Source of the DNA: Eledone cirrhosa
Taxonomy: Eukaryota
Length of the DNA stretch: 64,000 nt
Direction: 5' to 3'
Assembly: GCA_964016885.1 (NCBI GenBank)
Contig: OZ024743.1
Span: forward strand, 317,626,001 to 317,690,000
The position numbers were made by a program, and so were the translations under genes. The notes beneath the pieces are model-generated. The model had not been told where the DNA came from, searched no databases, and saw only the letters and a list, made by a program, of their open reading frames with translations. Below, in pieces: positions 20,737 through 52,431 of this stretch. Every line of letters begins with the position of its first letter. The stretch's first letter is position 1.

Positions 20737-20787
20737 TTATTCTCCAAATTTATGTTTACATGCTGAATTTTTGGCAGCTTGGGTTAT
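20737..20787 (-). CDS. ZnF-UBP gene terminal exon ([16 protein letters not shown])
   Basis: Acceptor tgtttcttgtag; the KN..A..KFG end resembles the HDAC6 C-terminus; TAA stop. Confidence 0.9.
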   Translation of the reverse strand: MTQAAKNSACKHKFGE

Positions 20788-21394
20788 CTACAAGAAACAA
20801 TGAAAATAAAATAAAATAACCAATCAAGAATATATTGTCAAATTCATTGATGTGTTGTTTTATAGCTCATGCCTATGAAGGTTAACCCTATAGCATTTAA
20901 ACTGGCTGTATCCAGCCAGAACTCTCTCTCACCTCTTTCTGTTCAAACCGGCCATAACTAGCCACTCATACTGATATTAAGGTATTGTTCTCAAAATAAA
21001 TAATATCAAAATCTCATAGATTCGATATTATATAAAATAAAGTGTTTACCACAAAAATACAATAGTATATATAGAGTAAAGTAAATACTAAAGGGTTAAG
21101 TTGGCCTCCTACAAGGATGCATTTCATTGCAGGTTTCTCTGCTGTTTTAATGATGGAGGTTTAGCTGGCCTCTTATGAGCTTGCATTTCATAGGATGTGG
21201 GGGGTTTTTTTTGGTTGTTTTAATGATAGAGATTCCACTCTAGGCTGTGCAAAACAGGGCAAACACAACTCAATACATGGTAGAATGTTGTGTAATATAT
21301 TTTATTATAACTGCTAAGCTACCCTAATAGCTCTTGTCCCTTGACTCACAGCTTTGCAGCTATAATAAAACATATTATTGTGTGTGTGTGTGTG

Positions 21395-21433
<39 letters not shown>

Positions 21434-24400
21434 ATGGCTGCCTCCTCGTTATCGAGTATGGCCATTGCACGATATAACATTATTAATAATTATCAATTAA
21501 TGCTATGGTGCAATGCCTGTGCGTGAGGATTTTTTTTTTAAAGTGATAAAAGACTGTGCACTGAGCCAATCCCACTCTCTGAGCGACAGTAGCTATAACC
21601 CGAAAAGAAGAAAAGATCAACATCATCGGTAACTACTGAGTCGCAGGTTTTATGTCAGTGTGGACTGGGAGCCTTTTTACCATGTCTCCTACACAACCAC
21701 TTTACAGTGTGGACTGCGTGCTTTTTTGTCGTGACACCTACATGACCTCTTTAGTTTAGACTGGATGTTCTGTGGTACCAACATAACTTTACAGAGAAAG
21801 GGTGGTGTTGGTGGGAGTGGGAGGATGGAGCAGAGGTAGTGGGTTGGGTGTATATTTGGTTAAGAGGTGCCTACTGACTGTAGGTTTAACTTTGCACGTA
21901 GGGAAAGCAGGTCTTCTGTATTACTGCGTAGCGCCAAAAGTCTCGATCCAGTGACATTGTCTTAGAGAGGTGTAAGTGTGCAAGGTCGGATTTTATCATG
22001 TCATCCCGAGTTTTTCTGGATCTACCTACTCCGTAACTTCCATCAATTTTGATCGCTCTGCACTTTTTTATACAGCTGTCGTCTTTCATGCGAATCACAT
22101 GACCATATCAACGTAATCTTCTCTCAAGTAAACAGCATCTGATCCCTCTTCTTCCTGATTTTTCACTTAGTTCATTTATGCTTTGCCGTTCACGTATATT
22201 ACTATTATACATCTAACGGAGCATGCATGCTTCGTTCTTTTCCAGTCTGCGCAGGTCCTCTGCACGCAATGCCCATGTCTCACTGCCATGTAATGTTGCT
22301 GTTCGTATACAAGGATCATACAAACTGCCTTTCATTTTTAGAGAGAAACCTTTTGTGGCCAACAGCGGTATAAGCTCTCTGAACTTTTTCCATTCTGTTC
22401 TAACTCTGGCTACTGTACTTTCAGAGCACCCTCCACCACAACTGATTTTGTCACCCAGGTAACAGAAAGTGTCCACTATTTCTATGGAATCATCTGGGCA
22501 GTAGAAAGAGCTAGTATCTTGTGGGCACTTGCTACTTATTGCACCTGAGCATCAGCCACATATAAAATCTACATTCTTAGATAGCTTGCCTGTGATGCCA
22601 CTACATCTTTTATGTACCCATAGTTTGCATTTGGGACATAAAATGGAATTTATACCTACTCCTTTCCTATACACTGAGCATGGCCATTTCCCAGAGGGCA
22701 ACTGTGCCCTATTTTCCTTTCTACATACTAGAACTTTAGTCTTAGAAAAGTTAACTTTAAGGCCTTTTGATTCTAGGCCATGCTTTCATGTTTGGAATTT
22801 CTTCTCTAGTTCAGCTATAGATTCAGCTATGAGAGTTAGATCATCTGCATATAGAAGTTCCCATGGGCAGCCGGTCTTAAACTCTTGTTTTTGCCTGTAG
22901 GGCAATAATAAACAAGAGGGGGCTAAGGACGGAGCCTTGATGAACACCTACTTTTACGCTAAATTCTTCACTATATTTATTATTAATTCTAACCTTGCTG
23001 ACTGTTTCTCTATACATGGCTTGTATAGCTCTCACAAGCCATTCATCTATTAGTTTTCTAAGGGCCCACCAGATAATGGAGTGGGGGGATTCTGTGAAAG
23101 GCTTTCTGAGGGGCCTACTTTTAGCTAGGTACTTCTGTAGTTGTCGTACAAGGAAAAGAGCATCTGTGGTACTTTTACCTGGCACAAACCCAAACTGCAT
23201 TTCATCTAGATCAATTTGGTCTCTAATTAGTTGTGCAATAACTCTTTCTGTGACCTTCATGACCTGGTTAACTACTTAATGCTTCTATAGTTTTCTCTAT
23301 CTAGAGCGTCGCCTTTGTAGCAGTTAACGATGCTGCTGCTACACCAATCATTTGGTATAACTCCATTCTGTATTACTTGGTTTACTATCCGGGTGACCAT
23401 AGTATGTCCCACCATTCCAGATGCTTTCAACATCTCAGCAACTATCTCCAAAGGCCCAGCTGCCTTGCCTGTCTTCATATCTTTGATTGCCTTACTTATT
23501 ATACTACCATTAACTTGCACAGCTGGTCCCTCTATTGGATCAATTTGGGGCAGACTATCTTTTTCCCATTTATTCTCCTCATTTAGTAGTCTCTCGTAGT
23601 GACACTTCCAAGCTACCTTCTTATCAATATCAGTGAAGGCAAGTACACCATCATCATTACGGACTCACTTCTCCCCGACAATATCACAGTTTTCCTTGAC
23701 TCATTGTCTTGCAATCCTGAACACCTCACGTTTTTGGTTTTCGCGTTGTACAACATGCTTGAACTTTCTATCCTCTGCTTCTCTTTTTGTGAAGTACACT
23801 TGTCGCCTAGCCACCTGATAGTGTTCTCTACTTCCTTCATCTGCCATTCTTTCTAAGCCTGCTTTTTGGCCTTGATTGTCTCCTCCACCTTACTGTTCCA
23901 CCACCAAGTTACTCTCCTCCTGCCTAAAGGTCTGCTCCAGCCAAAGATTTTATCTGACACCTTCAGCATGTTAACTTTCAGGAATTCCCACTGTTCTTCT
24001 ATATTGTGTGTCTCTAATTGCTCTTCCTTACTGTAAAAAGTATCAAGTAATATGCTCTTAAATTTGTTACTGGCTGGGGTCCTTCAACTTCCATATTCTT
24101 TTCCTCACGTCGAGTACGTTTAGTCTTGACTATGAGGTCCTGTCGGGAGGTGCATTCTTCATGAGGGAGGGACTTAGTGTTTACAACAGACACTCTGTCA
24201 CATCTTCTAGTAAGGATAAAATCTATCTGGCTAGTGTATATGTATATATATGCATATAATTACATGCCTTCTGATGACGGCCCAATTACATTCAAGAATC
24301 AATTAAAAGTGTCTATCATGTTTTCAATTTACAGGGAAATTCGTATTTTCTGGTGTTTACATACTACATATTAAATATGTGTATATTTATATACACATTG

Positions 24401-27400
24401 GTGCAGTCTTAGTTACACTCTCTATGTATACAGATATAACTTTATATATATCATCATCATTTCATTTTACGTCCGCTTTTCCCTGCTTGCAAGGGTGGGA
24501 CGGGAACTGATTCTGGCTTGATTTCTACAGCTGGATGCCCTTCCTAACACCAACCCCATTTACAGTGAGTGCTGGGTGCTTTTTTGCCGTGGCACCTCCA
24601 CGACCACTTTGCAGTGGAATGATAGGGACCCCAGTCCCTATCATCTCATTTCTACAGCTGAATAAACTGGAGCAATGTGAAATAAAGTGTCTTGCTCAAG
24701 GAAACAACACATCACAAATATATTATAATATAATGGGGTTGTTAGTAGATAATCAAGAACAATAGAATGAAAATTAATGAAAGTTGGTAGAATGAGATGA
24801 TAAAAGGCATCCCAGACGTGACCAACTTGTTTCTACATATCTCTCTCTCTCTCTCTCTATGGAACAACAGACATAAACTGATGATGATGAAGACTGATAG
24901 GGTTACACAGCGACAATCTTTAAGGTTTTAAATAGTTTAAAAGACGGCGACATTCTCTTACCTCATGATCTACATAACTGTTACAAATATAACACCATAC
25001 AGAGATATCTGCATAGCTTAGCACCATACAATGGTCAGGCTCAACTTTGTTGTGCATCAACATATGTCCGTTTATATATCGACTGCAGTACACCTGTAAA
25101 AGACAAACAAAAAATAACAGTAAATATATATATTATAAAGTGGTTGGTGATAGGAAGGGCATCCAGCTGTAGAAAACTCGATGAAGAGGACTCTTTAGTT
25201 GTGTCAAAAATGACAATTTCCCTGGTGCCATGATTGCACACTGTTTCTCATTCTGTAAAGTATGGGGGCATATGTAAACAAGATGAGTCCTCAGCCCATC
25301 TGGGAGACCAGTGGCTTTGATTAAGTACTGAATTGATCTGTGAAGACCTGGAATATTAAATAATGATGATATAAATATATATCCACACACGTATACAATG
25401 CTCTTATAAGGGTACTGAGGTAGCTGTGATATGATCACAGCTTAAAATACAGTGGGGCTATTAGTATGTTCATTATAAATAAATATATAAGGTGGTGAAT
25501 TGGCAGTATCAGTAAAGAGTCAGACAAGATGCTCTGTGGCATACAGTTATAGCCCTTTACATTCTGAGTTCAAATCCTTATGGTGTTAATAAAATAAAGT
25601 ACCAGTAACACTGGGATCAATTTAATCAACTTTCTCCTCCCTCCAAATTGTTGGCCTTCTGCCTAAATCAGAAACCATTATAGTTGGACAAAATGACAAA
25701 AAGAGATTGATAAAATAAGTACTGGAGTTAGTATGATAAACAAAATCCTTTCAAGACGAAGCCCCTAATATGGTTAAAGTCTAATGACTGAAACCAGTAA
25801 AAAAATAAATATAAAGAATTTGGGAAGCCATGAAAGATTATGAGGATCATAGAAAACGTAGGAAACTCAAACACAAAAATAACTTTAAATACAGTTGGTT
25901 GCTATAGATAGCTTAAAAGACCTCTTATAGATGGAAAAGTGGCCAGTGGTTGCTATGAAGAATCAAACTCCACATCTCTCAGATAATGGTTGAGTGCTTT
26001 AATCATTAAGCTGTGGGACCACTAATAACAACCACAATCTAAATTGGGAAGCTTAATCAAACACCCTGTAAATAAAAACAAACAATATTGTATATACATA
26101 CCTTATAGCAAGTAAGACAAACCCAATTCTCATTTATGTCTCCACATGTTTTACATGGGGCTGATGTATCAAGACCTCCTTCTGGCAGAACATGTGTCAC
26201 GATTTCAAGATGTGGACACCAACTTAAAGGTTTAATACAGTACAGAGATTCTTGCTGAAATGAGAAAGATATGTAAAGTTTTTTGCATGATTTTTTTATA
26301 ACAGATCATATATTGAAACAAATATTGTACTTTGGCAGAGTCATGCTGCCACTTAAAATACATGTATCAATCGAGTTTCACTTAAGTTTTATTATTGATC
26401 AGGTAAGAACAGTGGATTGGAAGAATTAGTAGAGCATCGGACAAATGCTTATCAGTATTTGTTTCTTTTTTTTATGTTCTGAGTTCAAATCCTGCTGAAG
26501 TCAACTTTGCCTTTCATCCTTCTAAGGTTGATTAAATAAAGTATCAGTCAAGTACAGGAGTAGATTTAATTGTCCATCCCCTCCCTACAAATTGCTGGCC
26601 TTGTGCCTGAATTAGAATCATTATTTATTAAAATTAATTAATCAATTAATTGGTTAATCAACTAAGTAATTAATTATCAAAGTCATTTCATCACAACCTG
26701 TGACCTTATTGATAACTCTTGCCTTCTGTGTTTTCTATTTGTCTTTCTGTCTCTCACTTGTACATATGAAAGTAGGAGGGAAATGTAACCCTGTGTTTGT
26801 GTGTGACACGACAAAAAGCACCCAATCCACCCTGTAAGGTGGTCGTGCTGGGGACATGACAACAAAAAAATACCCAGCCCACTCTGCAGATGGTTGTGCT
26901 GGTATCACAATGAAAAAGCACACAGTTCACCCTGTTAGATGGTCGTTTTGGTGCCACAATAAAAGCACCCAGTTCACACTGTAATGGGCTTAGTGTTAGG
27001 AACGCCATCCAGCTGTAGGAACCAAGTCAGAAACAGTTGAATATGAGTAAAAACATGGTCACCTGACCTGACTTGTTGCATGTAACAACCCATCTCATCC
27101 ATGCAAGCATGGAAAAATGGACATTAAACAGTTGATGATGATATACGAGTTGATTAACAGATGATGATGATATACGAGGTGTGTCAGAAAAGTTTCAGGA
27201 CTGATGACACAAAAGATTTATTTCAAACCCAAACTTCACACTAAGAATTTTCTCCTTCAAAGTAATCCCCCTGGAGTATGTAACTGTAATCTTAGCTCTC
27301 TGCAGCGATCAAACTTTTTTCTTCATAATTTTATATACATGTCCTCTGTTTCAGGTCATCAAGCAATGAGCACAGAGCAACGAACACACTTGAAGTTTCT

Positions 27401-30400
27401 GGTACGGTTGGGGAAAACTCCGTCAGAAGCACTGGGATTGCTGCAGCAAGTGTATGGAGAGTTTAAAGAAGGACGCGAGGACGTGGAAGATGACCCCAGG
27501 AGCGGAAGGCCCTCAACAACCAGGACTGAGGTCAATGTTGAGCGCGTCAGGCAGATGGTGCGTAGCGATCGTCGTCTGACTGTTCGACTGATGGCAAATG
27601 AGCTGGGCATGAATCAGGACAGCGTCTGGAAGATTCTCACTGAAGATTTAGACATGCGAAGATGGTGCCAAAACTGCTGAACGATGACCTGCTAGGGACA
27701 GTCATCACCGGTGATGAGTCATGGATCTTCGAGTATGACCCAGAGGGGACCCGTTTTGCAGACGTGGATGACATCAAAAAGGCCATGATGATGGAACTGC
27801 GGAGGATCCCAGAAGGAGTGCATTGCAAGCGTGGCAGAAAAGGATGGAAAAGTGCATTAGACTCCAGGGGGATTACTTTGAAGGAGAAAACTCTTAGTGT
27901 GAAGTTTGGGTTTGAAATAAATCTTTTGTGACATCAGTCCTGGAACTTTCTGACACACCTCGTATACAAACATACATTTATATATACTTTCAAAAATCGC
28001 AATCTAGCCAACTCCACTTCTTTATCTACCTACATACACTCTCTGAAAACTAGGAATAGACCATATACACTTCAATGGGAAGTAATAGATAGGGCCACCT
28101 CGTATAAACCACAGAATAGATTATGTAACCTCTGTCTTCTAGAGACTCACACTATAATCTATTCTAAGCTAAACCTTTTAAATAGAAAATCAGAAATTTT
28201 TTCCACGTGGCAACACTACCACCGACACTCTTTCCACAATTTCAAACCTAGCTGCTAATATATAACAATGTCAGATCTGGATTCCTCACCACCGTTAACA
28301 CTTTACCTCTAGGTTTTATCAGATCACATTCTTCTATCAGCTCATCCCTCCACTTATCTCCAGTTTATCTCAGATCTTATACTCAACAATAACTATTGGG
28401 AATAAACAAAGTTACCACCACTTAATATAACTACAATATCTTCCTTACCAATATTTCATTCATTTAATTAGTATATGGGTAGGTAGTGATAAATTGTGAC
28501 CTTTAAATTAAATATAAAAATATAAAAATAAATAGCATTATATAAAAGGATTTACTTATAATATAATATATTGTATATTAACACATAGAATTTAACTAAT
28601 TGGAGTCATAAACAATTAATACCAGATTATACATTTTTCTCTTATACACAAATTAATCAGCAATTACCTCCCCTTAGTGTAGATCTAGATCTCTTCCTGA
28701 AATTAAACCGTTAGACAGATCACTCCAGAACAACTCTAACCTTTCATAAGATTTTAATCGGACCAATACACAATCCATAGTTGTAGCTACTCATAAACAT
28801 TTCCTAAAATATAACCAATGTAATGGAAAGGAAAACCTTGGTATTAACACTCACAACACATATACATTTGAACATTACCGGAACAATTTTCACATTGCAT
28901 CCACCATAAACTATCATAGAAACTGCTTTTCATACCCACGCATTGCTGTCTGCTTGATATGCTTTTACACCTGTATTGTATTATGTGATACCTTTGCCAT
29001 ACTGTGATATTTATGCTTAGTACCATTGCTCGTTTTTTCACCTTGTTTCTCTGTACATGCATAATGCCTCTGCACTCTTTCTATATGTTTGCCTATGTAC
29101 TGTTAAAGTCCTCATTTTGCGAGTAACTTTCTTTAATTCTTCTATAATCTTTGTCGCATCCGCTGATACTAACCACATCACCTTCACTCTTTAAATATGT
29201 GTCTACGATTGTTCTGTGGAATAGGAGGTTAATTATATGTCTAAACTTTGCTAATGCTCCGATGATCTCAAACGAAAGTTTGGAAGAAACGATTGTCAGC
29301 AATAAAATGTTTTGAACATAGTTTTGATTATTCTGTAATTTACATATATATATATATACATATTAATACATAGTATTGGTAATACATTAAAAAAGCTGAC
29401 AGTTTTATAGAAAATATTGGTAAAAACTGATGATAAGCTATAAGATGCATGATTTACTAATACCATGTATTAAATTATATATTTTCTTCTATGTTTACAT
29501 ACCAAGGTGTCATTTTTTTGTAATATTTCAGGGCAAATATTCTCTTTTCAAATGTAAAATCAAAATAGGTTAAAACAAAACAAAAGAAAACAAACCAAAA
29601 CAAAACGATCAATGTGTTCTTCCCTAACTGGCCCAAGTGTCTAAAATATGCATGGAGCAGTTATAGTAGGCTATTATCATCAACAAGAAAAAACCACAAA
29701 TAAATGATTAGAAATGTATGAAGCCGAGTGGCACCTATAACTGCTACACCTGGGCTGAATTGAGAGCTGATCTCTAATTGATACACTTCACAGAGATGAC
29801 AAAGGAGTACAGTAGGTGGAGGGAGGTTGTGTTGCAGAGGACTCATTCACCTCATCCAACCATGCAAAGATGGATGTATGATGATGATAATGTTGGTTAT
29901 TCAGTGTGACAAGACTGACCCTTTACATTACAAGTACAACTCATTTTTCCCGGCTAAGTAGATTGGAGCAATGTGAAATAAATTGTCTTGCTGAAGGGCA
30001 CAATGCACCACTAGGAATTGAACTCTTGACCCGACAATCATGCGTCAAACACCCTAATCACTAAGGTGTGTGCCTTCATGAAAACTAAATACACGTCAGT
30101 TGAAACTGGTTATTGATCAACAGCTGGTGTTTGTATAAATAAAAGAATATATAAATCAATACCTTAAAAGGCAATATAATTTAAGATATACAGATATACG
30201 TCACCCTAAATCATTAATTGGTTCTAGAAGTCAAGACCTAAGTTGAAAAACAATGTATGTCAAATTACCCCCTCTATAAGCCACTAGTAGGCATTCCCCA
30301 GTGCTGTACTTTAATGTACATTTACCATTTATTCAAATGTGATTTTATGTTTTTTTTATGGTTTAATATTTTTGGTAGATTGATGTAAAGTTGAGTCAAT

Positions 30401-31303
30401 CGACATAACATGAGGTATAATTTTGCCATATAATTGTTTCTACTTTTGGCACAAGGCGAGCAATTACCCCAGTGCATTACTGGTACTTTATTTTATCGAC
30501 CCCGTAAGGATGAAAGGCAAAGTTAACCTCGGCAGGATTTGAACTCAGAACGCAAAGGGCCATAACTCTATACTGCAAAGTATGGTGTCTGGTGCTCTAC
30601 CAATACTGCTAATCCACCACCCTTCTACCAATATTGCCATGACATATAATATTAATAAAAACTGCTGTAACTTTGAAATAAATGATGTACATGAAACTAT
30701 ATAATAGCAAAGTTCACATTTTTTCCCAAACAAATTTTCGTTTTGATTCTATATTTTCATGTGAAATATTTATGCAATTAAGTGATAGATTTTATGGGCA
30801 AAACCAGTCAGCAGGAGTAGACCCTGAGCAAGATGGTTGTATGACATCCCTGAGCTCGACTGGTCTCAATTGGGGATCCAGCCTGATCAATTGGAGATGG
30901 TTGCTTCTGACAGGAGCCACTGGAAGGAATGTTTGAAGACTCTGCCCCCATGACTCTCTCAGAAATAAGTGGGTGAAGAAGAGAAGTAATAGAGATATAT
31001 CTGTTGGATTTTGACAGCTATGGAGTCTGTGTGTGTGTAGTTTGAAGCTATCTATATTGTCTATATTTGTTTGGGAAAAAATGTGAACTTTATTGTGTAA
31101 TTTCATGTACCTTGTTTATTTTGATAGATATAAATTACTAATTAGATACATATATGATTGGTATTTAGATAAATAAAACAAATGGTTTACTTCCAATTAA
31201 ATTTACAATAATAACTTTATAGTCATACCATTTCAACAAGTTGTTGTAAATATTCACCCCGTTTATCATATGATTTTTCTCCACTGGCACCAGCTTCACA
31301 CAT
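20737..31303 (-). CDS. HDAC6-like: Spliced gene encoding an HDAC6-type ZnF-UBP (BUZ) domain protein, ~136 aa; join(complement 31229-31303, 26102-26254, 24962-25093, 20737-20787)
   Basis: Manual translation with GT-AG introns, all phase 0: [25 protein letters not shown]|[51 protein letters not shown]|[44 protein letters not shown]|[16 protein letters not shown]. Matches the HDAC6 C-terminal domain motifs PLxWCPH, ENWVCLxCY, YCxRYINGHM, LSYxDxSxWCY and the terminal KFG. Confidence 0.9.
20886..21095 (-). mobile_element. piggyBac-like MITE, inverted second copy
   Basis: TTAA|ccctatagcatttaaa ... tactaaaggg|TTAA; reverse complement similar to 18773-18990. Confidence 0.75.
21660..24235 (-). mobile_element. 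Degenerate RTE subfamily B copy in the last intron of the ZnF-UBP gene
   Basis: Frameshifted RT ORFs 21886-23840. Confidence 0.93.
24450..24714 (-). mobile_element. SINE family A copy
   Basis: Same sequence as 7440-7714. Confidence 0.85.
24962..25093 (-). CDS. ZnF-UBP gene exon ([11 protein letters not shown]...[12 protein letters not shown])
   Basis: Acceptor gtcttttacag, donor GAG|gtaaga; 132 nt; RY and WCY ubiquitin-binding motifs. Confidence 0.95.
26102..26254 (-). CDS. ZnF-UBP gene exon ([15 protein letters not shown]...[10 protein letters not shown])
   Basis: Acceptor tttctcatttcag, donor AAG|gtatgt; 153 nt; HDAC6 BUZ motifs. Confidence 0.95.
26790..27142 (+). repeat. Array of ~45-bp units plus RTE-type tail
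   Basis: About four units of ...aaaaagcaccca..cac.ctgtaa.gtgg, then ttaggaacgccatccagc and a GAT tail. Confidence 0.75.
27175..27962 (+). mobile_element. Internally deleted mariner element with ~100-bp TIRs and TA TSD
   Basis: TA|cgaggtgtgtcagaaa...; transposase remnants [46 protein letters not shown]. Confidence 0.92.
27965..28258 (+). mobile_element. Penelope-like element, C-terminal GIY-YIG endonuclease remnant
   Basis: Open frame [21 protein letters not shown]...[25 protein letters not shown]...[10 protein letters not shown], typical of PLE endonuclease C-termini. Confidence 0.75.
30687..31110. mobile_element. MITE-like element with ~45-bp TIRs enclosing an RTE 3' fragment (30790-30985)
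   Basis: gtacatgaaa...aaagttcacattttttcccaaacaaat vs atttgtttgggaaaaaatgtgaacttt...tttcatgtac. Confidence 0.6.
31229..31303 (-). CDS. ZnF-UBP gene, first coding exon ([25 protein letters not shown])
   Basis: Acceptor ttgttaatctctag|ATG, donor ATG|gtatga; 75 nt, open, and joins the next exon in phase 0. Confidence 0.7.
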
Positions 31304-31496
31304 CTAGAGATTAACAAATAAAAACAGCTCATCATCATCATTACCATCATCACCACCACGACGACAACAACCACCACCACCCTCACCATTTAACATATGC
31401 TACCATAATGAAAGAAACTGCCTTTTGTTTTCAAATAATTTTGAAAATAAACCAGAATTTAGAGAAATATAGTAAAATAACTAACATTCTTATTAT

Positions 31497-32040
31497 TGAG
31501 AGAGAGACTGAGCATAAGAGGAATCAAATGCTGTGTGCAGGAGAGGCGGTTGCGTTGGTATGGACATGTGATGCGTATGAAAGATGACAGCTGCATAAAA
31601 AGGTGCAGAGCACTAGAAGTCGATGGAAACCGTGGAGTGGGGAGACCCAAGAAGACCTGGGATGAGGTGATAAAAGCCGACCTTACCTCTGGCGTCACAC
31701 AGTAATACAGAGTACCCGACCTCCCATGGGTACAAACTGAAGCATATAGATAATATGCCCCCATACCCTCCCACTGCAAAGTGGTCGTGGAGGTTCCACG
31801 GCAAAAAAGCACCCAGCCCACACTGTAAAGTGGACATGTAGGCACCACGGTAAAAAAGCACCCAGCACTCACTGTAAATAAGGTTGGTGTTAGGAAGGGC
31901 ATGCAGCTGTAGAAATCAAGCGAGAATCAGTTCCTGTATGAGCAAGGCATGGTCAGCCGACCAGACACTGCCCACAACAGGACAACCCATCTAACCCATG
32001 CTAGCATGGAAGAGCAGACGTAAAACGGTGATGATGATGA
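31497..32040 (+). mobile_element. RTE subfamily A 3' fragment with full tail
   Basis: Near-identical to 62105-62689. Confidence 0.9.
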
Positions 32041-32419
32041 TATCATAATCCTCATCATCATCGCTTTAACACCATCTTTGCTAGCTAGAGTGGTATGGTA
32101 GCAAACGTCAGATAAAATTCCCTGCAGTATTTGTTTCAGCTGTGTGCCAAATTCAAATCCTGCTAATGTCAACTTTGTCTTACATCCTTTTATGGTCAAT
32201 AAATACAATACCAGTCATGCACTGAGGGTTGACTCTTATTCTTTCTTTTCCACTTTCTCTCTGGAAGAAATTGTCTCTGTCGGATGTTGTTACCTCTACA
32301 ACTCCATCATGAGTTCAGGGCCACTGGATGAATGTAATTTGTATTTCAGATAGACATCCATGTGGCAGCTCAACTTGCTAGAAATAGCAACTAAATTTCT
32401 TTTTAAAGAATGCTTTACC

Positions 32420-33730
32420 ATCATCATCATCATCTTCATTTAACGTCCATCTTTCACGCTAGCATGGGTTAGACGGGAGTTTTCCCACTTGAGGCAAGGT
32501 TGGTCGGGTGACCGTGTCTCACTCATATAGGACTATCTGGCAGGTTTTCTACAGCTGGATGCCCTTCCTAACAACAACCAGATTTAGTGTGGGCTGGGAG
32601 TTTTTTTACAGTGTTACCTACACGGCCACATTACAGCATGGACTGTTTTTTTTTTTTTGTTGTGACACCTACACAATCTCGATCTCATTATCTCATTTAT
32701 TTGGACTGAATGTTGCGGTACTAACTTTACAGAGAGAGGGTGGTGGGAGTGGGAGGATAGAGTAGGGGTAGTGGACTGGTGTATATTTGGTTAAGAGGTG
32801 CCTACTGACTGTAGGTTTCACTTTGTACATAGGCAAGGCGGGTCTTCTGTATTACTGTGTAGCGCCAAAGATCTCGGTCCAGTGACATTTTCTTAGAGAA
32901 GTGTAAGGTCAGAATTTATCAAATCGTCCAAGGTTTTTCTGGGTCTACCTACTCCATAACTTCCATTAATTTTGATCGCCCTGCACTTTTTTATACAGCT
33001 GTCGTCTTTCATCCGCATCACGTGACCATACCAACGTAGTCTTCTCTCAAGTAAACAGCATCTGATCCCTCTTATTCCTAATTTCTCACTTAGTTCATTT
33101 ATGCTTTGCCATTCACGTATATTACTATTACACATCCAACGGAGCATGCATGCTTTGTTCTTTTCCAGTCTGCACAGGTCCTCTGCATGCAATGCCCATG
33201 TCTCACTGCCATGTAGCATTGCTGTTCGTATACAGGCATCATACAATCTGTCTTTCATTTTTAGAGAGAAACCTTTTGTAGCCAACAGCGGTATAAGTTC
33301 TCTGAACTTTTTCCATCCCGTTCTGACTCTGGCTACTGTACTTTCAGAGCACCCTCCACCACTGCTGATTTTGTCATCCAGGTAACGGAAAGTGTCCACT
33401 ATTTCTATAGAACCATCTGGGCAATAGAAGGAGCTAGTATCCTGTGGGCACTTGCTACTTATTGCACCTGAGCATCGGCCACATATAAAATCTATGTTCT
33501 TAAATAGCTTACTTGTGATGCCACTACATCTTTAATGTACCCATAGTTTGCATTTGGGACATAAAATGGAATTTCTACCTACTCCTTTCCTACACACTGA
33601 ACATGGCCATTTCCCTGAGGGCACCTGTGCCCTATTTTCCTTTCTACAAACTAGAACTTTAGTCTTAGACAAGTTAACTTTAAGGCCTTTTGATTCTAGG
33701 CCATGCTTCCATGTTTGGAATTTCTTCTCT
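32420..33730 (-). mobile_element. RTE subfamily B 3' fragment
   Basis: ORFs 32893-33399 and 33532-33777. Confidence 0.92.
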
Positions 33731-33821
33731 ATATGAATATATATATACTGTAGAACAAATTTGGTATAAATATCCATGAGTCAGAGCACTCAGTCCATAG
33801 GACGAGTTAAGTATAATTAGC

Positions 33822-33972
33822 TACAACAGTGACATGTGCAGGTGCTTAAGTTTCGTTGGGTTATTCATCCCAACTAATTCAGCCCATCATATAAAAATCT
33901 TATATGAGAGGCTGAATGAGTTGGGGTGAATAATGTGAGAAAACTTAAGTACCTGTATATGTCACTGTTGTA
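33822..33972. repeat. ~150-nt imperfect palindrome (hairpin)
   Basis: tacaacagtgacatgtgcaggtgcttaagttt / aaacttaagtacctgtatatgtcactgttgta plus an inner stem. Confidence 0.85.
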
Positions 33973-34211
33973 ATTATTATTATTATTCTTATTCTCTTGC
34001 GCTAAGTGGTTGTGTAGGTGTCTTGACAAAAGTCCCCAGTCCACACTGTACAGTGGTCGTGTAGGTGTCACGACAAAAAGCACCCAGTCCATACTGTAAA
34101 GTGGTCGTGTAGGTGTCACAACAAAAAGAACCCAGCACAATGGGACAACCCATCCTACCAATGCTAGCATGGAAAATGGACATTAAACGATGATCATTAT
34201 TATTATTATTT

Positions 34212-34678
34212 ACCAGCTATCGGCCAAGTCCATAGTGAAGATTGACCCGCCGTCTTCTTTTGGCCAGGAAGGGCAGACAATTTTCCTGTCTGGTGGCAGT
34301 TGCGAAAGAGGTTGTATGGTGGATCAGATTGAAAGGACTGAAGACAGACACTTTTCTCTTCAGCCAATCCCTCATCAACTTCTTCAAGGCTGCTTATAGG
34401 CTGGCTAACTTGATGAGAGGGGTGCCCTCCCCGGGTGTCCTAGAAGTGCCGGATGGTTCAGGATTGGTGGGGTATCCTGGGTCGTCCACCCCCCTATTGG
34501 GGAATTTATTTTGTTATATTTATGCATAGTTTATTTTACATTTTCATTGTTAAATTGGTCTTGCCATTGTACACTTTTACTTGAGCTTATTGTAAACCCC
34601 ACTGTCCGTGTCTTTGTATTGTCCCCTACATGTCGGCCCTTGTGACCAATAAATGACATAATTATTATTATTATTATT
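34212..34678 (+). mobile_element. Probable L1/Tx1-type LINE 3' end with AATAAA and (ATT)n tail
   Basis: Frameshifted ...CLVAVAKEVVWWIRLKGLK...; polyA signal at ~34648. Confidence 0.45.
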
Positions 34679-35634
34679 ATATATACTAATAGATTTATGA
34701 AATCACAAAACCACAAGATGTTTTGCACACCTATGGAATTGTAACACAGAATACTCATAGATTTACTAGTGTGGGGGCAATTGAACAAATCAATTAGGGT
34801 TATCAATAAAATTTATACAACTAATATCAACCAATCAATAAATCAAATCAATTAATGGAAAAAAATTATATATATATATGTTGTTGCGTGAGCTAAATTC
34901 ATATATTGATACCATGTGCGTTTAGTCACATTCAACCCTGTATTGGAGAGATTAGATGATTTTGGAATTCCCTTGCCGATCCGTTTCAAAGTATCTAATT
35001 TCACCAAATAACGGTGAAATGTATTCTGCTTTTGTGGAGAATACATGAGGGAAATATATTTATGTTATCTTACATTCAGTACACATTGTCTCTAGTTTTA
35101 AGTTTTGATGTATTTTTATACACACTTATATGTGTATGGATATATTTCATTCACTTTTTTATAATGATTAAGGCTCGATTTTATTCTCTGAATTCTATTT
35201 TGAGCTGTTTTTTGAGACAAGACATGTTTGATTTTGTATCATTCAAGACATCATTTACTTTGAATGTAATAATAATTGTTTCTACTTTTTGGCACAAGGC
35301 CAGCAATTACCCAGTACATTACTGGTACTTTTTATTTTATCGACCGCGTAAGGATGAAAGGCAAAGTTAACCTCGACGGGATTTGAACTCAGACCGTAAT
35401 AATAATATATATATATATAGGCCAAAAATTGAGTGTTTGGTAGCACACCCTACTAGGAATAGTAACCAAATCATCCCCAATACACGACCTACCGTCTAAC
35501 ATATGTATGAATCAGAGAGGACGCCTCTACAGGATGTCTCTACCTGTCTACCTGGTAGAAATAGCAACCAAATCTCCCTCAAACAACAGTGTCTAATATA
35601 TATATATATATATAATATACATATATATATATAT

Positions 35635-35950
35635 GGAGGCACATGGCTTAGTGGTTAGAGCATTGGCCTTGCAATCGAAAGGTTGTGAGTTCAATTCTCA
35701 GACCGGGTGATGTGTTGTTTCCTTGAGCAAGACACTTTATTTCACATTGCTCCAGTTTACTCAGCTGTAGAAATGCAAAGTGGTCGTGGAGGTGCCACGG
35801 CAAAAAGCACCCAGCCCACTCTGTAAAGTGGTCGTGGAGGTGCCACGGGAAAAAGCACCCAGCTCACTGTAAATAGCTGTAGAAATCAAGCCAAAATCAG
35901 TCCCCGTCCCACCTTTGCAAGTAGGGAAAAAATGAAATTGAATGAAATGA
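35635..35950 (+). mobile_element. SINE family A, tRNA head intact
   Basis: A box TGGCTTAGTGG, B box GAGTTCAATTC, CORE-like tccttgagcaagacacttt, tandem units, RTE-type tail. Confidence 0.88.
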
Positions 35951-36037
35951 TATATATATTATATATATAAAGTTAGTTTTCGCTCTTCGATAAATTTGTG
36001 AGTTTGTTATCGAATAATAATGAGCCAATTTGCTTAC

Positions 36038-36099
36038 CAAGCAAATCCCTTACACAGGTAAGCCATATCGCCAACAGGAAGGGATGTTATTGCTGATAC
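36038..36099 (-). other. Candidate 5'UTR exon of the ZnF-UBP gene, carrying a uORF
   Basis: Acceptor tttacttgcag and strong donor TTG|gtaagc; contains ATG GCT TAC CTG TGT AAG GGA TTT GCT TG. Confidence 0.5.
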
Positions 36100-37535
36100 C
36101 TGCAAGTAAATAGTCACTGCCTAGTGAGGGTCAAGAGCTTTAACAACATTTGGTTAAAAAGTGAATTGGAATGAGTAGTGGGAGAAAGATTAGATGGAGC
36201 AGTTGATGGCAGAAAGATTAGATGGAGCAGTGGAGATAGTGGTGCAGAGAATGAGAATAAGGCTGGTGGATGGAGTTGATGTGGTGATGAATATGGTTGT
36301 CCATTTAGAAGGTGTTAGGTGGTGAAGGGACAGCCTATATCGTAAATGTGCAACAGAAAAGTTGGAAGATAAGGATTTTCTGGCTGTATTCAATGGTACT
36401 GGAAGGGAGAGGCCCTGACGTTAAGCAATAAGATGAACTGAATGGAGATGCCAGGAATGAGTTCGAGGAAGAGGTGGAAAGTGGACGAAACTGAGGTGTC
36501 GGCAACAGAGGTCTTATGCCACCTAAAGAGATTTGGATTAATCACAAAACCGCTGGAGGTAGTGGAAGGAAGGAGCTGCATTGGAGATCAAGCTGTGAAG
36601 AATCATGGCAGGTGTATTGGTATTTCAGAGAAGAAATGAAATCCGGCATGAACAGATGATAACTATTCTCAGTGTGTGGGAGATTGGTGAGCCACTATCC
36701 AACTATGGAGTAACTTCAAACAGCATGTAGCCCCGCCAAGAGACGGTGAGCTGGGGGAACAGAGTGGGAGAGAGGATAGAGACTATGATGCGGGAGATCC
36801 TGGAAAAGGTAAGAGCAGAGGATCCAGTAAGAGGAAGTTGGTTTGTGTCCAAAATGAAGAACGGGGTCGTATGGCGGGGTTGAGGTTGATAGGAGTCGTT
36901 CTGGAAATAGGGGGTGACGAGGAGTGGACACAGCTTGGCTGTAACCACATCAACGTGGCCGAATTGAACGCCATGTCCCGCACCCCTTACAACACAGCTC
37001 ACACCTATGTAGGTTTAGCTGGTTTTCTATGAGGTTATATCCTAACGGTTTCTTAGATGTTTTAGATAGTTGTATGAAAGCAACGCGAGCGTCTTGCTCA
37101 AAAATAACTTTTTCTTAAAATCTTTGACTGTATGCCAGATATATATTTGATAATTTTTTTACAATTATGCCAATCGAATGTTAGAGGCGAAATTTTTGTT
37201 TTTTTTTCGTTGGATTTTTATGTTTTGAACGAATTTGACGTTGAAAATTATTGTTTTTGTTGTTGTTTTTTTTTAGTTACTGACGGGGACGCGGGGGGGG
37301 GGGGGGGGGCTCCCTCAGTGTTCTTGGTTTTTGAGATGAATATTACACTCGTCTCGTTTGGAGATAAAATTTTAATATTTTCAATTTGTTTTTGATGTTT
37401 TGAATGAACGAATATGGCCTTTAAAACTATCAAACATTATTTGTTTTTAGTTAATGGCTGAGGGTGGCGATTTCTATCTAGACGGGTGTAATTGTAAAAA
37501 TTTACCATACATTTATTAAATGGCCAGGTACTTAC

Positions 37536-37660
37536 CGTTGCTGTAGTGCAGGTGCAATTTAGATAGACCCGGTATTTTCCTGTTCTGAGTATAAATCTCT
37601 CCAGTGGCTGCTTTCGTCTTTCTTTTCCACCCGAGGGGGCAAAAGTTCGACCGATTAAAC
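37536..37660 (-). other. Candidate first (non-coding) exon of the ZnF-UBP gene
   Basis: Consensus donor ACG|gtaagt at 37535; non-repetitive, GC-richer segment without an ATG, lying ~300 bp from the divergent SLC37 start. Confidence 0.5.
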
Positions 37661-37957
37661 TAAAAATATACAGATTTTAGTACTAGTAGTATCGAGTCAA
37701 TCAATTATATGCTTTCCGTTATTTTACAACAAACTTTAAGTTTTATTATATTTGTTGATTTTAACTGTAATCCATTGATAATGAGAAATGGTGTAGCAAG
37801 ATCAGAGTTATCTCCCTTAGACGCTCTTCACTTCTTCCTATCTGTCTTCTATTTCTGTTTCGTTGACACAATATCCTTCCTGTGTCTCTCTTTTAACTTA
37901 TTTGTTTACAAACACCCTCTGTCGTCTCTTCAGCTGATTTGTTTAAAAAGACCCTTT
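37660..37957. promoter_or_regulatory. Putative bidirectional promoter / 5'UTR region between the two head-to-head genes
   Basis: Unique sequence between the minus-strand donor at 37535 and the plus-strand ATG at 37958. Confidence 0.45.
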
Positions 37958-38068
37958 ATGAGGATGTCTTTCGAATTGGCACTTCTACGTAGGAAACAAG
38001 TGTTGGTTTTCTCTTTAGGCTGGTTGTCTTATGCGGCAACGTATTTACTGAGAAAACCCCTTGGTGTG
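37958..38068 (+). CDS. SLC37-like coding exon 1
   Basis: ATG at 37958 (alternative at 37964), TM1 ...[13 protein letters not shown], donor GTG|gtatgt. Confidence 0.85.
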
Positions 38069-38118
38069 GTATGTTACTTCATTTAATATATTTCTGTCAT
38101 ACACTTTACTGAAAAGAA

Positions 38119-38159
<41 letters not shown>

Positions 38160-41100
38160 TCAGTTTATTATAGAAATGACTTCTACGGGACTAAAACTGT
38201 TTCATTCGTAAGAAATCATCACGAAAGTGCTGATGATTCCTTACAAATGAAACAATTTTTAGTACTGTAGAAGTCATTTCTAAAATAAAATGATCATAAA
38301 TATACTCTACTGGGGTACTGAGTACCCTTTTTAACAGCCTTTCCTGTTAAAAGGGGTACTTTTTAATGAAACAATTCTAGTCCTGTAGGAGCCATTTGTA
38401 TATTAAACTCGATATAAATATATTTATATAATTTATTGCGAATTATTGATGGATGTTGAATTGAATGTTATTTCTAAGATTCAATAAGCAATGCGATGTT
38501 TATCAATATTTAGATATTGTGAATGTAAACTACAAGAAACTATCGACCGCTGACAATAATCATATACTCTTTTCCGTTATTTACTCTTATTCTATTTCTT
38601 GAGATGAAATCTAGTCTTGAGTTATTTTGTTTTTCATCGTTATGGGAACAAACAAAATAAGTTAACAGTCGCCCATAGAAATATGAAGTTAGCTTTGTGT
38701 TTGCTTAGTCAAAAGAAAGACGGGTATTTTTCAGACTGATAAATAAACAGGATCGAGATAGGTTTGTAGGCACCTTATATATATAGTAAAGGCGTCCAAA
38801 GTTAAGACATTGGGATGACTTTGGGGTTAAGCTGGAATCCGACTTCAGATCAGCAAATAAAGTATTCTGGCAGATCATCCTCCGACTTCGTAATAAGGAG
38901 CCCTCCTCCACACCTATCAAGAACGCGCCTGGGGTTCTCTTCTCTTCAGAGAGGTGCATCCTTTCAATGTAGAAATAATACTTTGCTGATCTCCTAAACC
39001 CAATCATAACAGCATCTTCTGAGGTGCATCTAGGAGCAGTGACTAATCTCTCTGAGGCTGATGTCACATAAGCAGTTAAAGATCTCAAATGTGGCAAGGC
39101 CACTGGGGAAGATGAAATCTGGCCTGAGATGTTAAAAGCCTTAAATAGAGAAGGTATTCTCTGACTGACTCTTGTGTGCCGGTTGGCCTGGAACTTTGGA
39201 AAGGCTTCTAAGCAATGGCAATTGGGAGTGATAATCCCAATTTTCAGAAAGAGAGACAAGATGGATTGTTCCAGTTACTGAGGGATTTCCTTGTTAAGCC
39301 TCCCCAGTAAAGTCTATGCTAAGTGTCTGGCAAAGAGATGCAAGGAGATTGTTGAGTCCAAGCTAGCTGATGAACAGTGCAGTTTTTGCCTCGGACGCAG
39401 CACAGCCAACTAAATATTCACATTGCGGCAGGTCTTCGAGAAATCATAGGAGTATTGCCGAGAGGTATATTGTTTTGTCAACCTTGAAAAGGCATATGAC
39501 TGCATTCCTCATGACTTGCTGTGGTAGGTTCTGCAGGAGTATGGGATCATTGCTCAGCTTCTTGCTGCCCTGATGTCTCTATTCAAATGCTTGAGTATTT
39601 GTGATCAGATAAATGGTGCTAAATCGAAACCATTCATTGTGGGAGTTGGACTCTGCTAAGGGTGCATACTGTCACCTCTCCTGTTCATTATTTACATGAA
39701 TAGGATTGACATGCACAGCTGGGTTGGAAGTGGTATTATGACTGGCGGGTGTAAAACCAGTCGGCTGGAATTTGCAGACATCATGGTGATATTTAACTTG
39801 AGAGAAGGTGATCTACGACTTGCAACCAAACCAGTTAGAGAAGGTTGCTTCTGACAGAACCTGCTGGAAGGAGTGTTTGAGGACTCTGCACCAACAACCC
39901 TCTCAGGAATAAATGTGTGAAGAAGGAGGTCGATGAACTATGTTTTTCCAGGCTATGGTTTTAAGACGTTTGCAGGTGCAGGGCCACTGACAACGAACTT
40001 TAATCTTTCCTAGTTTGTTATCATACATGTCGATCATGTTCATTTGGAATGCCTGTAAATAAATGTAATTATTTCAGCTGTTAGAAAGAGCAGCGAAATC
40101 TGTGTTCAATGAATATTTTCTAGCATAGATATTTAAATAAGGGAAGTAGTGTGCATTCACAGGTGAAATTTAAAGAAAACTAAAAAGATTATGAACATGA
40201 CTATTTAAAAGATTAGTATTATGTATATATTATTATCACGGTTTTAGAAATAATATAAAAGGTTGATTCACTTTAGGAGAAATGTATTGTATATGATAAA
40301 TGTTGTTGAATAACAAGAATGACTTTGTGTGTTTATATAAAGATTTTCTTGATGGAAGTCAACAGTAGAACAATACATATTTTACCACAAGTTGTGATGG
40401 TGTAGTTGGCTGATTAGATTGAGACCAAAGAGAATTCTCTTAACATGTTCACTGGAGTAGGCTGGTGGGTGCCAAAAGAGAATACTCTTAACATGTTCGC
40501 TGGAGTAGGCTGGTAGGTGCCTAAGAGAGAATGCTCTTAACAAATTCGCTGGAGTAGTCTGGTAGGTGCCTAAGAGAGAATGCTCTTAGCATGTTCGCTG
40601 GAGTAGGCTGGTAGGTGCCTAAGAGAGAATGCTCTTAACATGTTCGCTGGAGTAGGCTGGTAGGTGCCTAAGAGAGAATGCTCTTAACATGTTCGCTGGA
40701 GTGGGCGAAGTCGCCCGTTCTCCAAGGCCGCTGCGTCGAGAAGAGAGAAAGAGCGCTCTGGCGGTTTCAATATATAGTCCCCATGGGGACGTAACTCCAA
40801 TGAGTTCTGGATTTCGCCGCTAGGGGTCACTACAATACCCTCCTCCAGACAATAGGCGAAAAGCCTGAAGGTAATTCTAGCGAACTCGCAAGCATGGGAT
40901 CCAAGCAAAGGCATAAAACAGTAACAAATAATCAAAGAGTACATGCATACAAAATTCAATGAAAAAGAAAACAAAAGGCTCCAGTGGCCAGTTCATATAA
41001 AAAATGTCTGACAGAGTTTTTTTGGCCAGTGGACTCTTTGACCGGAACGGGTCGTGGTATTGTATGCAGGTGAAGGTGGGGCAGAAGGAGCAGGTGTATG

Positions 41101-44100
41101 CACAATGGAGAAAGATTGGGGTATTTGTGGCTCAGGTGTATGAGCGTCAGTGTATGCCCTTTTTAATCTATCCACCAAAATTGTCTGTGTTCAGTGAGCC
41201 AGTAATGTGCTGTATATCATTAGTAAACTGCAAAATGTAAACAAGGTGCCTTGTCTATCTGGGTGAATATTTGTCGGCTTTAGCCCTCAAAGCGAAGGTC
41301 AGAGGTTTGTGGTCAGTGAAAACCATAAAAGTTCTTCCCTCAAGAATATGAGAAAAATGTTTCAACGACAGATATATGGCTAATAACTCCCGACCAAACG
41401 TGCTGCAACGAGTTTCTGCTGGTTTCAGTTTCCTGGAGAAAAAAGTTCAAAGGTTGTTGGTTTCCAGCGATATACTGTTGTAAAACTGCTCCCACAGCGG
41501 TATCAGATGCATCAACACAAAGCGAAAGCTCGGCCTCTGGTATGGGTGGGCTAGCAAAGATGAATTAGCAAGTGCTGTCTTGGCAGTCTGGAAATCTTTG
41601 AGTTGTCCTTGTGTCAAGGAAATATCCTCATTCTTCTTACGACAATTTTTCAAAATCTCGGTAAGGGAATATAGTAATTTTGCACATTGAGGAACGAAGC
41701 GTCTATAAAAATTGATTAGGCCTAAGAAGTGATGCAACTGGTGAAGTGTAGTAGGCAGAGGTAGAAAATCCTGGAGATGGAGAATCGGATATCTATCCGG
41801 GACGGTCATCGCGTTTAACCTCCTATAAACCCCAGTGGGTCTCCAGTCGCCAGAAGTCTTGGGCACCATATGTAGCGGTGAAGCCGAAGGACTCATAGAT
41901 GGGCGAATAATGCCCAGCTGCAACATATGGTCGAACTCAGACTGTGCTGCCTTTAACTTGTCCGCCGTTAAACGACGTGGACGTGAAAATACTGGAGCAC
42001 CGGTTGTGGAAATAGAATGCTCGGTTGAGTAGCTCCAGGGTGAGTTCCAGAATGGCTTTCTACATAGCCATTATTGCTGCGCTGTGAGTATGAGTAGCTG
42101 CGCAGGTGGCATGGTCAGGTGTGGCCTGAGCTGGGTGAGGAATAGCGCCAAGGGCCTTAGAAGTATGAGATGCCATATGAGCGGCCAAAATGTGTCTCCG
42201 TATAGAAAACTATCTTGGACCCAAGGGAAAAAGGAAAATAAATCCACTTGTTTTTCTCTGTCAAACAACCGGACAAGAAAAGGAATGCATCCGAGATAAT
42301 GTGCAATGGAGCGGTTAATCAAGCAATGACATTAATAATACAGTTGCGGCGAACCTAAAACAAAAACCAATATGGCTCACAGTTTCGCGCCAAAAAAAAA
42401 ACATTTGATGGAGAAGAAACCCGCCATATTGACATCTTCAAAAATTTTAGCAAAGAAAAGAAGGAAGAAAATATATTTATACAATTGTTCTTTTTGCTAG
42501 GATATCAGAAAAAAAACGTGTTGTTTTGTATTAATTGTTTTTTTTGTTTTTTTTTATACATATAACACCACTTCCTATTATTTTTTTCGGGGTCACCACT
42601 TTAGAAGATTAGTATTATCATCATCATCATCATCATACGTCTGCTTTTCCCTGCTTGCAAGGGTGGGATGGGAACTGATTCTGGCTTGATTTCTACAGCT
42701 GGATGCCCTTCCTAACACCAACCTCATTAACAGTGAGTGCTGGGTGCTTTTTTGCCGTGGCACCTCCACGACTACTTTGCAGTGGGATGATATGGACACC
42801 AGTGTCTATCATCTCATTTCTACAGATGAGTAAACTGAAGCAATGTGAAATAAAGTGTCTTGCTCAAGGAAACAACACATCACCGAGTCTGAGAATTGAA
42901 CTCACAACCTTTCGATTGCAAGGCCAATGCTCTAACCACTAAGCCATGTGCCTCCATATATATATGTATATATTATTATTAGAAATAACATAAAAGGCTG
43001 ATTCACTTTAGGAGAAATGTATTGTATAAGATAAATGTTGTTGTTGAAATAACAAGAATGACTTTGTGATGCCTGTATACGAACAGCAATGCTACATGGC
43101 AGTGAGACATGGGCATTGCATGCAGAGGACCTGTGCAGACTGGAAAAGAACAAAGCATGCATGCTCCGTTGGATGTGTAATAGTAATATACGTGAATGGC
43201 AAAGCATAAATGAACTAAGTGAGAAATTAGGAATAAGAGGGATCAGATGCTGTTTACTTCAGAGAAGACTACGTTGGTATGGTCACGTGATGCGCATGAA
43301 AGACGACAGCTGTATAACAAAGTGCAGGGCAATAAAGATAGACGGTAGCCACGGAGTAGGCAGACCCAGAAAAACCTGGGACGAGCTGATAAATTCCGAC
43401 CTCACACACTTACACCTCTCCAAGACAATGTCACTGGACCGAGACCTTTGGCGGTACTCAGTAATAGAGAAGACCCGCCTTACCTAAATACAAAGTAAAA
43501 CCTACTACAGTCAGTAGGCATCTCTAACAAAATACACCCCGTCCCCCCACCCCCCACCCCATCCACACCGCCCCTTTCAATGTAAAGTTATGTTGGTGCC
43601 ACAACATCCAGGCCGAAACAAATGAGATCGTGTAGGTGTCACGACAAAAAAACACACAGTCCACGCTGTAATGTGGCCGTGTTGGCAACACGGTAAAAAC
43701 CTCCCAGTCCCACACTGTAAACGTGATTGGTGTTAGGAAGGGCATCCAACTGTAGAAAACCTGCCAGACAGTCCTATGCGAGCAATGAAAAGCACTCTTG
43801 CCTATAGTGGGAAAACTCCCGTCCAAACCCATGCAAGCGTGGAACATGGACGTTAAATGATGATGATGATATATATATATATATATATATAACAGTTCCT
43901 ATTGTTGCATGTGTTGATGCTAAGATGAGATGGAATATGTTGTGGTGTTGATTCGGTTGTTGTGTGTACTCACTTGGATTGCTCAATTGTGTGGTCACTA
44001 TTGTGTAGAATATAGGTTAAAGAAGATTGGTGTACCTGATACAGTGTGACCAGAGAATGCGGGTGTGTGTGCAAGTAAGTTGTCATTATGATGATGATGA

Positions 44101-46153: not shown

Positions 46154-46190
<37 letters not shown>

Positions 46191-51519: not shown

Positions 51520-51558
<39 letters not shown>

Positions 51559-52389: not shown

Positions 52390-52431
<42 letters not shown>

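Follow-up and report, generated by a model that had tools for sequence, protein, structure and literature searches.

Structure of the finger gene

The window analysed here is a 64,000-nucleotide stretch of the Eledone cirrhosa genome (contig OZ024743.1, C4:317626001-317690000; genome searched, 3.0 Gb). Its reverse strand carries a four-exon gene for an HDAC6-type ubiquitin-binding zinc finger (BUZ), lying head-to-head with a putative transporter gene of the major facilitator superfamily (MFS). Coding exon 1 (31303-31229, minus strand, 75 nt) gives a 25-residue leader that is predicted to be helical and retains the GAxGG-like motif seen in the linker ahead of the finger in HDAC6. Exon 2 (26254-26102, minus strand, 153 nt, 51 residues) contributes C38, H40, C59, C62, E67, W69, C71 and C74; exon 3 (25093-24962, minus strand, 132 nt, 44 residues) contributes C79, R81, Y82, H86, H90, H97, W109, C110, Y111, C113 and Y116; and exon 4 (20787-20737, minus strand, 51 nt including the TAA stop, 16 residues) closes the protein with KFGE. 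Boundaries are AG/GT throughout and all four exons are phase 0, joining into a 136-residue open reading frame (ORF) whose ATG directly abuts the acceptor at 31303, exactly as an earlier note on this DNA had described.

Both exon 2 (E 0.0047) and exon 3 (E 1e-11) match Pfam zf-UBP, and a search of the PDB with exon 2 returns HDAC6 fingers only (6 sequences, E 1e-13 to 2e-12). The finger is 58-59% identical (63/107) to those of abalone and rodent HDAC6. Its 12 Cys/His (C38, H40, C59, C62, C71, C74, C79, H86, H90, H97, C110 and C113) fall in columns that do not vary across 27 rows from outside the cephalopods, a count that excludes 5 more rows lacking the WCxH anchor; W37 of WCPH is not universal, being replaced in five homologues in which the finger is fused to deacetylase domains. 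In HDAC6-type fingers these 12 residues ligate three zincs. R81, Y82, W109, Y111 and Y116 align with human R1155, Y1156, W1182, Y1184 and Y1189 of the diglycine pocket. Every ligand and pocket residue named in the earlier note is present. According to the available text of two studies, R1155 and Y1156 act as gatekeepers in HDAC6, RLRGG binding being abolished when they are mutated, and W1182, Y1184 and Y1189 belong to the pocket (PMC3268394, PMC12000391).

For the fold comparison we used the Argonauta orthologue as modelled by AlphaFold, which has 70% identity to the window protein, rather than the window protein itself. This model has a predicted local distance difference test score (pLDDT) of 80, reached by 1/5 models, and a leader helix at 14-29; the top 12 Foldseek matches are all HDAC6 fingers (best E 3.5e-14). 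Judged by its sequence, the window gene encodes a real, conserved HDAC6-type BUZ finger and a predicted free-ubiquitin binder, an activity that we infer from the residues retained and the modelled fold.

Searches for deacetylase exons and further fingers

Scanned with sensitive profiles, the window and the next 200 kb upstream (264 kb, of which 232 kb lie upstream of the gene) revealed no deacetylase exon, the best score being 6.5 bits against 72-76 bits for the finger exons, and this interval has no assembly gap upstream of the finger gene. Across the genome, where searches score the best candidates only, the Pfam deacetylase query gave 15 matches among 24 candidates, on C7, C9, C12, C17, C20 and C27 and none on C4. 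Exon 2 gave a single match among the 4 candidates scored. Whole abalone HDAC6 matched C4 at the finger only and placed its first catalytic domain (CD1) on C17. Matches to the wider zf-UBP family also lie on C1, C3, C11, C12, C22 and C26, and are not hit by HDAC6 queries.

A second HDAC6-type finger was thus not found among the best candidates of the exon 2 and abalone HDAC6 queries, nor in 200 kb around the C17 gene. The finger stands alone, as first proposed: no deacetylase exon accompanies it, and the catalytic half on C17 is a complete gene (below). The same two results dispose of the converse scenario, in which the SLC37-like transporter is nested in a large HDAC6 intron. The earlier note had also offered a fissioned or duplicated sensor, or a natural competitor of HDAC6; fission is supported by the separate C17 half. 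With a second finger not found among the candidates scored, duplication is not supported, and neither is competition, for which a finger-bearing HDAC6 would be needed.

The catalytic half on C17

At C17:34506203-34478501 we modelled a 27-exon gene with GT-AG at each junction and a single open frame of 700 residues. In its CD1, which shares 56-61% identity with CD1 of molluscs, the His pair, metal ligands and Tyr are retained. The domain that follows (27-30% identical) has lost the His pair, the metal/zinc ligands, the catalytic Tyr and two long segments, and the stop codon aligns with abalone residue ~840, the point at which snails and bivalves begin their linker to the finger. Searching with a C17 exon retrieved a 701-residue O. 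sinensis protein, whose cluster-mates are an O. bimaculoides protein and two O. vulgaris fragments (the O. vulgaris catalytic half being in two pieces); our model agrees with the O. sinensis protein throughout, with ~86-88% identity in CD1 and 70% in both the linker and the decayed domain. No finger remnant was found in 200 kb around the catalytic gene. An intact second catalytic domain (CD2) was likewise not found, the CD2 query giving 11 matches among 14 candidates, all of them C17 CD1 or loci on C7, C9, C12 and C27.

Two details of this gene are recorded separately. Within the pseudo-deacetylase domain (C17:34490457-34478501) it is the late helical segments that are best preserved, in line with what has been reported for the interface of the HDAC10 pseudo-domain. 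About 22 nt past the stop is a splice-donor-like site (C17:34478501-34478479), possibly the donor of the ancestral coding exon that continued toward the finger.

The C17 gene also carries two tandem 60-nt phase-0 exons (34497454-34497395 and 34495730-34495671) that encode the same segment, one ending in Glu and the other in Lys. Isoforms X1 and X2 of O. sinensis, and likewise those of O. bimaculoides, differ at residues 254-272 only, which is this segment; fused HDAC6 models from Ruditapes, Mactra and Gigantopelta, together with rows P0059 and P0088, read both versions in tandem. The position is that of the substrate gatekeeper. In the available text of PMC5454378, Glu at this position goes with polyamines in HDAC10 and Lys goes with C-terminal acetyllysine in HDAC6 CD1, the gatekeeper being necessary but not sufficient. 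The gatekeeper is, from the exon sequences, predicted to be swapped by mutually exclusive exons. Octopod enzymes lack the two-residue L1-loop insertion of HDAC10 (the P(E/A)CE helix), having a gap opposite the fish HDAC10 insertion. Since the gatekeeper is insufficient alone and this insertion is absent, the switch in specificity is one that we infer: exon choice likely moves the C17 enzyme between polyamine-type (Glu) and C-terminal-acetyllysine-type (Lys) specificity. The exon pair is possibly a protostome-wide HDAC10/HDAC6-CD1 switch.

Conservation across cephalopods

Finger-only proteins occur in Argonauta hians (135 aa), in Sepia pharaonis (167 aa) and in Octopus bimaculoides, O. sinensis and O. 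vulgaris (a cluster of 14 members, 100-151 aa). Octopod fingers are 69-70% identical to the window protein and that of Sepia 56%, and every cephalopod orthologue found ends in KFGE. The gene had not gone unseen: for two Octopus species RefSeq has isoforms of 134-151 aa under the name 'histone deacetylase 6'. Finger and catalytic genes lie on contigs of different size in all three Octopus species (168 versus 48 Mb in O. bimaculoides, 174 versus 55 Mb in O. sinensis and 182 versus 74 Mb in O. vulgaris), and hence on different chromosomes. Longer homologues of the finger (n=36, from 137 candidates) include none from cephalopods among the 26 that are organism-named; gastropods and bivalves have the fused form.

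These comparisons bear on whether the locus could be a decaying pseudogene or an artefact of assembly or annotation. In favour of such a reading, the 5′ end in Eledone cirrhosa is a predicted one, and DNA contigs at the locus (3 runs, one sample) are short and non-spanning, their coding exons showing no difference among the rows listed. An artefact or pseudogene would hardly have kept an intact ORF with all ligands and ~70% identity to three other octopods, nor would it recur as the same two-chromosome layout in three independent assemblies, or have several annotated isoforms whose differences all lie ahead of one shared Met; we regard this explanation as scarcely credible.

Two apparent parallels outside cephalopods were dropped. 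A 158-aa finger-only model from Batillaria, considered as a second fission, groups with fused Babylonia HDAC6 (94/99) and is probably a fragment; three rodent-like finger matches of 198-222 aa are probably fragments too, two of the clusters holding 1,110-1,152 aa members. Separately, the 347-aa protein P0045 joins an HDAC6-type finger with ankyrin repeats.

Phylogeny and origin of the split

Octopod CD1 falls in a 13-row clade with gastropod and bivalve CD1, apart from fish HDAC10, with a Shimodaira–Hasegawa-like approximate likelihood ratio test (SH-aLRT) value of 99. Two rows of that tree, P0031 and P0058, were CD2 sequences, and its outgroup did not form one side of a single branch. An earlier CD1 tree had placed it with fused molluscan HDAC6 CD1 (SH-aLRT 97), and contained a Gigantopelta 'CD1' row that was its CD2; this row was dropped for the approximately unbiased (AU) test. 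HDAC10 of fish, present as one row, joins CD1 of vertebrate HDAC6 and lies apart from octopods, in agreement with the name hdac6/10 given to annelid genes in the available text of PMC12153100.

This placement matters for a reading in which two class IIb paralogues are old, octopods having kept only the finger of a true HDAC6 while the C17 gene descends from a separate HDAC10-like copy. Proteins with CD1, a decayed second domain and no finger do exist in the gastropod Plakobranchus, the barnacle Amphibalanus, the springtail Allacma and the mite Tropilaelaps (P0153, P0183, P0188 and P0197), and two hdac6/10 genes are described in Capitella (PMC12153100, available text). The decayed-domain proteins form no clade, however, and the starred branches force at least three label changes; octopod CD1 groups with fused molluscan HDAC6 (99) and not with Plakobranchus or fish HDAC10. 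The C17 gene and fused molluscan HDAC6 also have the exon pair and the inter-domain linker in common, and C17 stops just where the pre-finger linker starts. Ancient paralogy is accordingly improbable. Because the decayed-domain protostome proteins are scattered in the tree, CD2 decayed more than once, and protostome proteins have apparently converged on the HDAC10 layout repeatedly and independently, as far as sequence comparison can tell.

Cephalopod finger-only proteins form one group in the finger tree, from which 7/36 longer homologues were left out (ultrafast bootstrap (UFBoot) 95; 94% of 200 bootstrap trees). A GAxGG-like motif, its pattern set after viewing the alignment, precedes the finger in 24/36 longer homologues against 1/36 control windows. 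Descent from the ancient eukaryotic family of free-standing fingers found in plants and fungi, rather than from a piece of HDAC6, would be in keeping with Atlas clusters of 143-173 aa zf-UBP-only proteins (66-443 members, score 0.96-0.97), commonest in Streptophyta. Against it stand the closeness to HDAC6 fingers noted above (58-59%), the retained linker motif and the fact that octopod HDAC6 is without exactly this part; a search for proteins of similar length yielded 8 matches of 10 candidates, among which there was no convincing free-standing finger from another animal. We rate such a descent as very improbable.

As an observation on the motif itself (window 31291-31277; linkers of P0025-P0060), it is retained from rodents to molluscs within a linker that shows no other conservation, and is perhaps a binding motif.

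We therefore consider it probable, with good confidence, that the window gene is the detached C-terminal end of octopod HDAC6/10, and that the 136-residue finger is predicted to bind the diglycine tail of unanchored ubiquitin by itself. What separates the halves is a lineage-specific fission of HDAC6/10 with death of CD2, not a duplicate or a competitor. A translocation, or a duplication followed by reciprocal loss, would have parted the three finger exons and the final linker exon from the catalytic ones in an ancestral cephalopod. The detached exons were likely captured by a non-coding first exon beside the transporter promoter, translation beginning at an ATG that opens what was once an internal exon. 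The catalytic half has converged on the HDAC10 layout.

Several points weigh against this account. The cephalopod finger clade has an SH-aLRT of 43, which is weak, and the window protein lies outside the Sepia plus octopus subgroup; the Argonauta and Sepia leaders match GAxGG loosely, not strictly. The cuttlefish catalytic half was not found in a protein search with the C17 exon and the Sepia finger model has a doubtful N-terminus, so that a coleoid-wide date depends on that model by itself. The decayed C17 domain is a very long branch whose grouping with CD1 the AU test does not reject (p 0.32); as the tree cannot place it, its identity as CD2 is drawn from position and flanking motifs. Since genome searches score best candidates, the absence of an intact CD2 is likely rather than certain. 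The 5′ exon of the finger gene is a predicted one, and 8/14 human ZnF-UBP domains bind ubiquitin, HDAC6's among them, according to the available part of a preprint (bioRxiv 2025.09.28.679104).

Predicted function

In the cytoplasm, the small finger protein would sense or buffer free ubiquitin and unanchored chains, its activity uncoupled from deacetylase activity and from the inter-domain motor-binding region. It would bind unanchored ubiquitin tails as isolated human HDAC6 fingers do, for which the available text of PMC12000391 gives a Kd of 0.68 uM for RLRGG. Mammalian HDAC6 links unanchored chains to motors via the region between its catalytic domains (PMC8305448, available text), and together with p97 controls HSF1 activation (PMC4263459, available text). 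Transport or aggresome-type coupling in octopods would need a partner in trans, and the conserved leader helix would be its likeliest handle.

The same helix underlies the possibility that the split genes re-form an HDAC6-like complex, the leader docking on the catalytic half and function staying largely ancestral. The leader is conserved among octopods (15-17 of 26-27 residues identical) and helical in the model, and the inter-domain linker, a motor-binding region in mammals (PMC8305448, available text), is kept (70% to O. sinensis). Set against fused HDAC6, however, the leader has 5 of 22-24 residues identical, so no ancestral interface is evident; and CD2 is dead, so ancestral activity would not be fully restorable. 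We think this outcome unlikely, though less so than ancient paralogy, and prefer a detached finger acting on its own.

CD2 of HDAC6 is the domain credited with tubulin deacetylation in mammals. A tubulin acetyltransferase is present on C18; if CD2 is gone, then either another enzyme removes the mark or microtubules are more acetylated. SIRT2 is another enzyme that removes the tubulin acetyl mark, and CD1 would be an alternative candidate. The widest form of our proposal is that octopods, perhaps all coleoids, have dismantled HDAC6: they would have no HDAC6-type tubulin deacetylase domain, a free-ubiquitin sensor that is an independent 136-residue protein, and an enzyme toggling between HDAC10-like polyamine and HDAC6-CD1-like activity by a 60-nt exon swap. 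We advance it tentatively, as possible but somewhat short of probable. If true, aggregate handling and microtubule acetylation in cephalopod neurons would be wired unlike those of other animals.

Comparison with known systems

In fold, 12 Cys/His and diglycine-pocket residues the cephalopod finger is like the ZnF-UBP of animal HDAC6 (PDB 3C5K, 3GV4, 3PHD and 5G0F), its top sequence and fold match. It differs in being its own gene, with a leader of 25-27 residues and no deacetylase or motor-binding region in cis, whereas full-length HDAC6 has two tandem deacetylase domains and the finger in one chain. The orthologous fused HDAC6/10 of molluscs (Haliotis, Gigantopelta, Babylonia, scallops and clams) has the CD1 clade, inter-domain linker, Glu/Lys exon pair and pre-finger motif in common with the octopod genes; it is one protein of 1,040-1,190 aa with two intact catalytic domains and the finger, where octopods have two genes and a dead CD2. 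Vertebrate HDAC10 has the same layout as the C17 gene (an active and a pseudo-deacetylase domain, no finger) and the Glu gatekeeper of one C17 isoform (PMC5454378, available text); unlike it, the C17 gene is of independent origin, lacks the L1-loop insertion and can use a Lys-gatekeeper exon instead. Plants and fungi have free-standing zf-UBP proteins that, as in cephalopods, are finger-only and about 140-170 aa; the difference is that the cephalopod gene looks, by sequence, secondarily derived from HDAC6.

The database name 'HDAC6' is attached to both octopus halves, so neither gene is undiscovered; the label hides the split, the CD2 decay and the splice switch. In the literature covered, which leaves out most subscription journals, we found no paper on a split cephalopod HDAC6, CD2 loss or the exon switch, and the available part of a review does not mention molluscs (PMC7288346). 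The octopod genes show that CD2 decay has produced the HDAC10 layout anew, and they point to a splice switch of the gatekeeper in protostome HDAC6/10 that is unreported in that literature. HDAC6 is a drug target, and its ubiquitin-binding and deacetylase functions are usually separated by mutation only. Octopuses offer a natural separation of these functions, with CD2 loss, kept across several species, in animals whose nervous systems are very large. Through the split one can ask experimentally whether a finger that has no covalent link to motor-binding and catalytic parts is able to sense unanchored ubiquitin and to route aggregates.

Upstream exons and the neighbouring transporter

Upstream of the finger gene, the only donor with >=6/7 consensus matches in 31304-38100 lies at 37536. 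It would end a likely non-coding first exon (37536-37660, minus strand, single-copy DNA), whose splicing to 31303 is predicted. A possible alternative 5′ untranslated exon occupies 36038-36099 on the same strand, its splicing likewise putative. The claim that these candidates supply no in-frame Met stands: 37660-37536 has no ATG and the one ATG of 36099-36038 is out of frame. The short N-terminal extensions of annotated Octopus isoforms differ from one another but all stop directly ahead of a shared Met, as expected if several 5′ exons are spliced to a single acceptor; these extensions had no counterpart at the upstream donors in the window (best scores 4-12). When 36099-36038 is joined to 31303, a 9-codon upstream frame results whose TGA overlaps the main ATG (TGATG), perhaps by chance.

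The interval 37661-37957 is likely a shared bidirectional promoter, to judge by CpG content (observed/expected 0.7-1.4 at 37001-39000 versus mostly 0.1-0.55 at 30001-37000). The divergent gene starts beyond it as the earlier note had placed it, with candidate ATGs at 37958/37964, ~300 bp from 37660 and ~420 bp from the donor at 37536. Five exons of this MFS transporter gene (SLC37-like) were seen at 37958-56325 on the plus strand, and it extends further. Three of the five tested match MFS_1 weakly (E 0.036 to 3.5e-5), and in the PDB the best match is a rice protein (E 0.0027), SLC37A2 scoring E 0.55; the SLC37 name given in the earlier note is plausible but weakly supported. The transporter may be of the SLC37/organophosphate-antiporter type, and has a short intergenic region in common with the finger gene.

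From their motifs, other parts of the window are putative retroelements and a putative transposon: a near-complete LINE-type (long interspersed nuclear element) copy with an endonuclease and a 750-aa reverse transcriptase frame, broken copies in the finger-gene introns, an LTR-type (long terminal repeat) reverse transcriptase fragment and a mariner-like transposase fragment (together at 59266-62389 (+), 22200-24260 (-), 32900-33780 (-), 41447-42070 (-) and 27171-27960).

Elsewhere in the genome, a locus on C20 with two similar deacetylase exons was considered as HDAC6 and dropped (26-40% identity to abalone HDAC6, E 0.001-0.036), as it looks class I. This class I-like deacetylase gene (C20:21556686-21541486), presumably HDAC8-like, has 2-3 similar exons for the metal-ligand segment (21556680, 21555092 and 21544809), possibly reflecting exon duplication or alternative exons.

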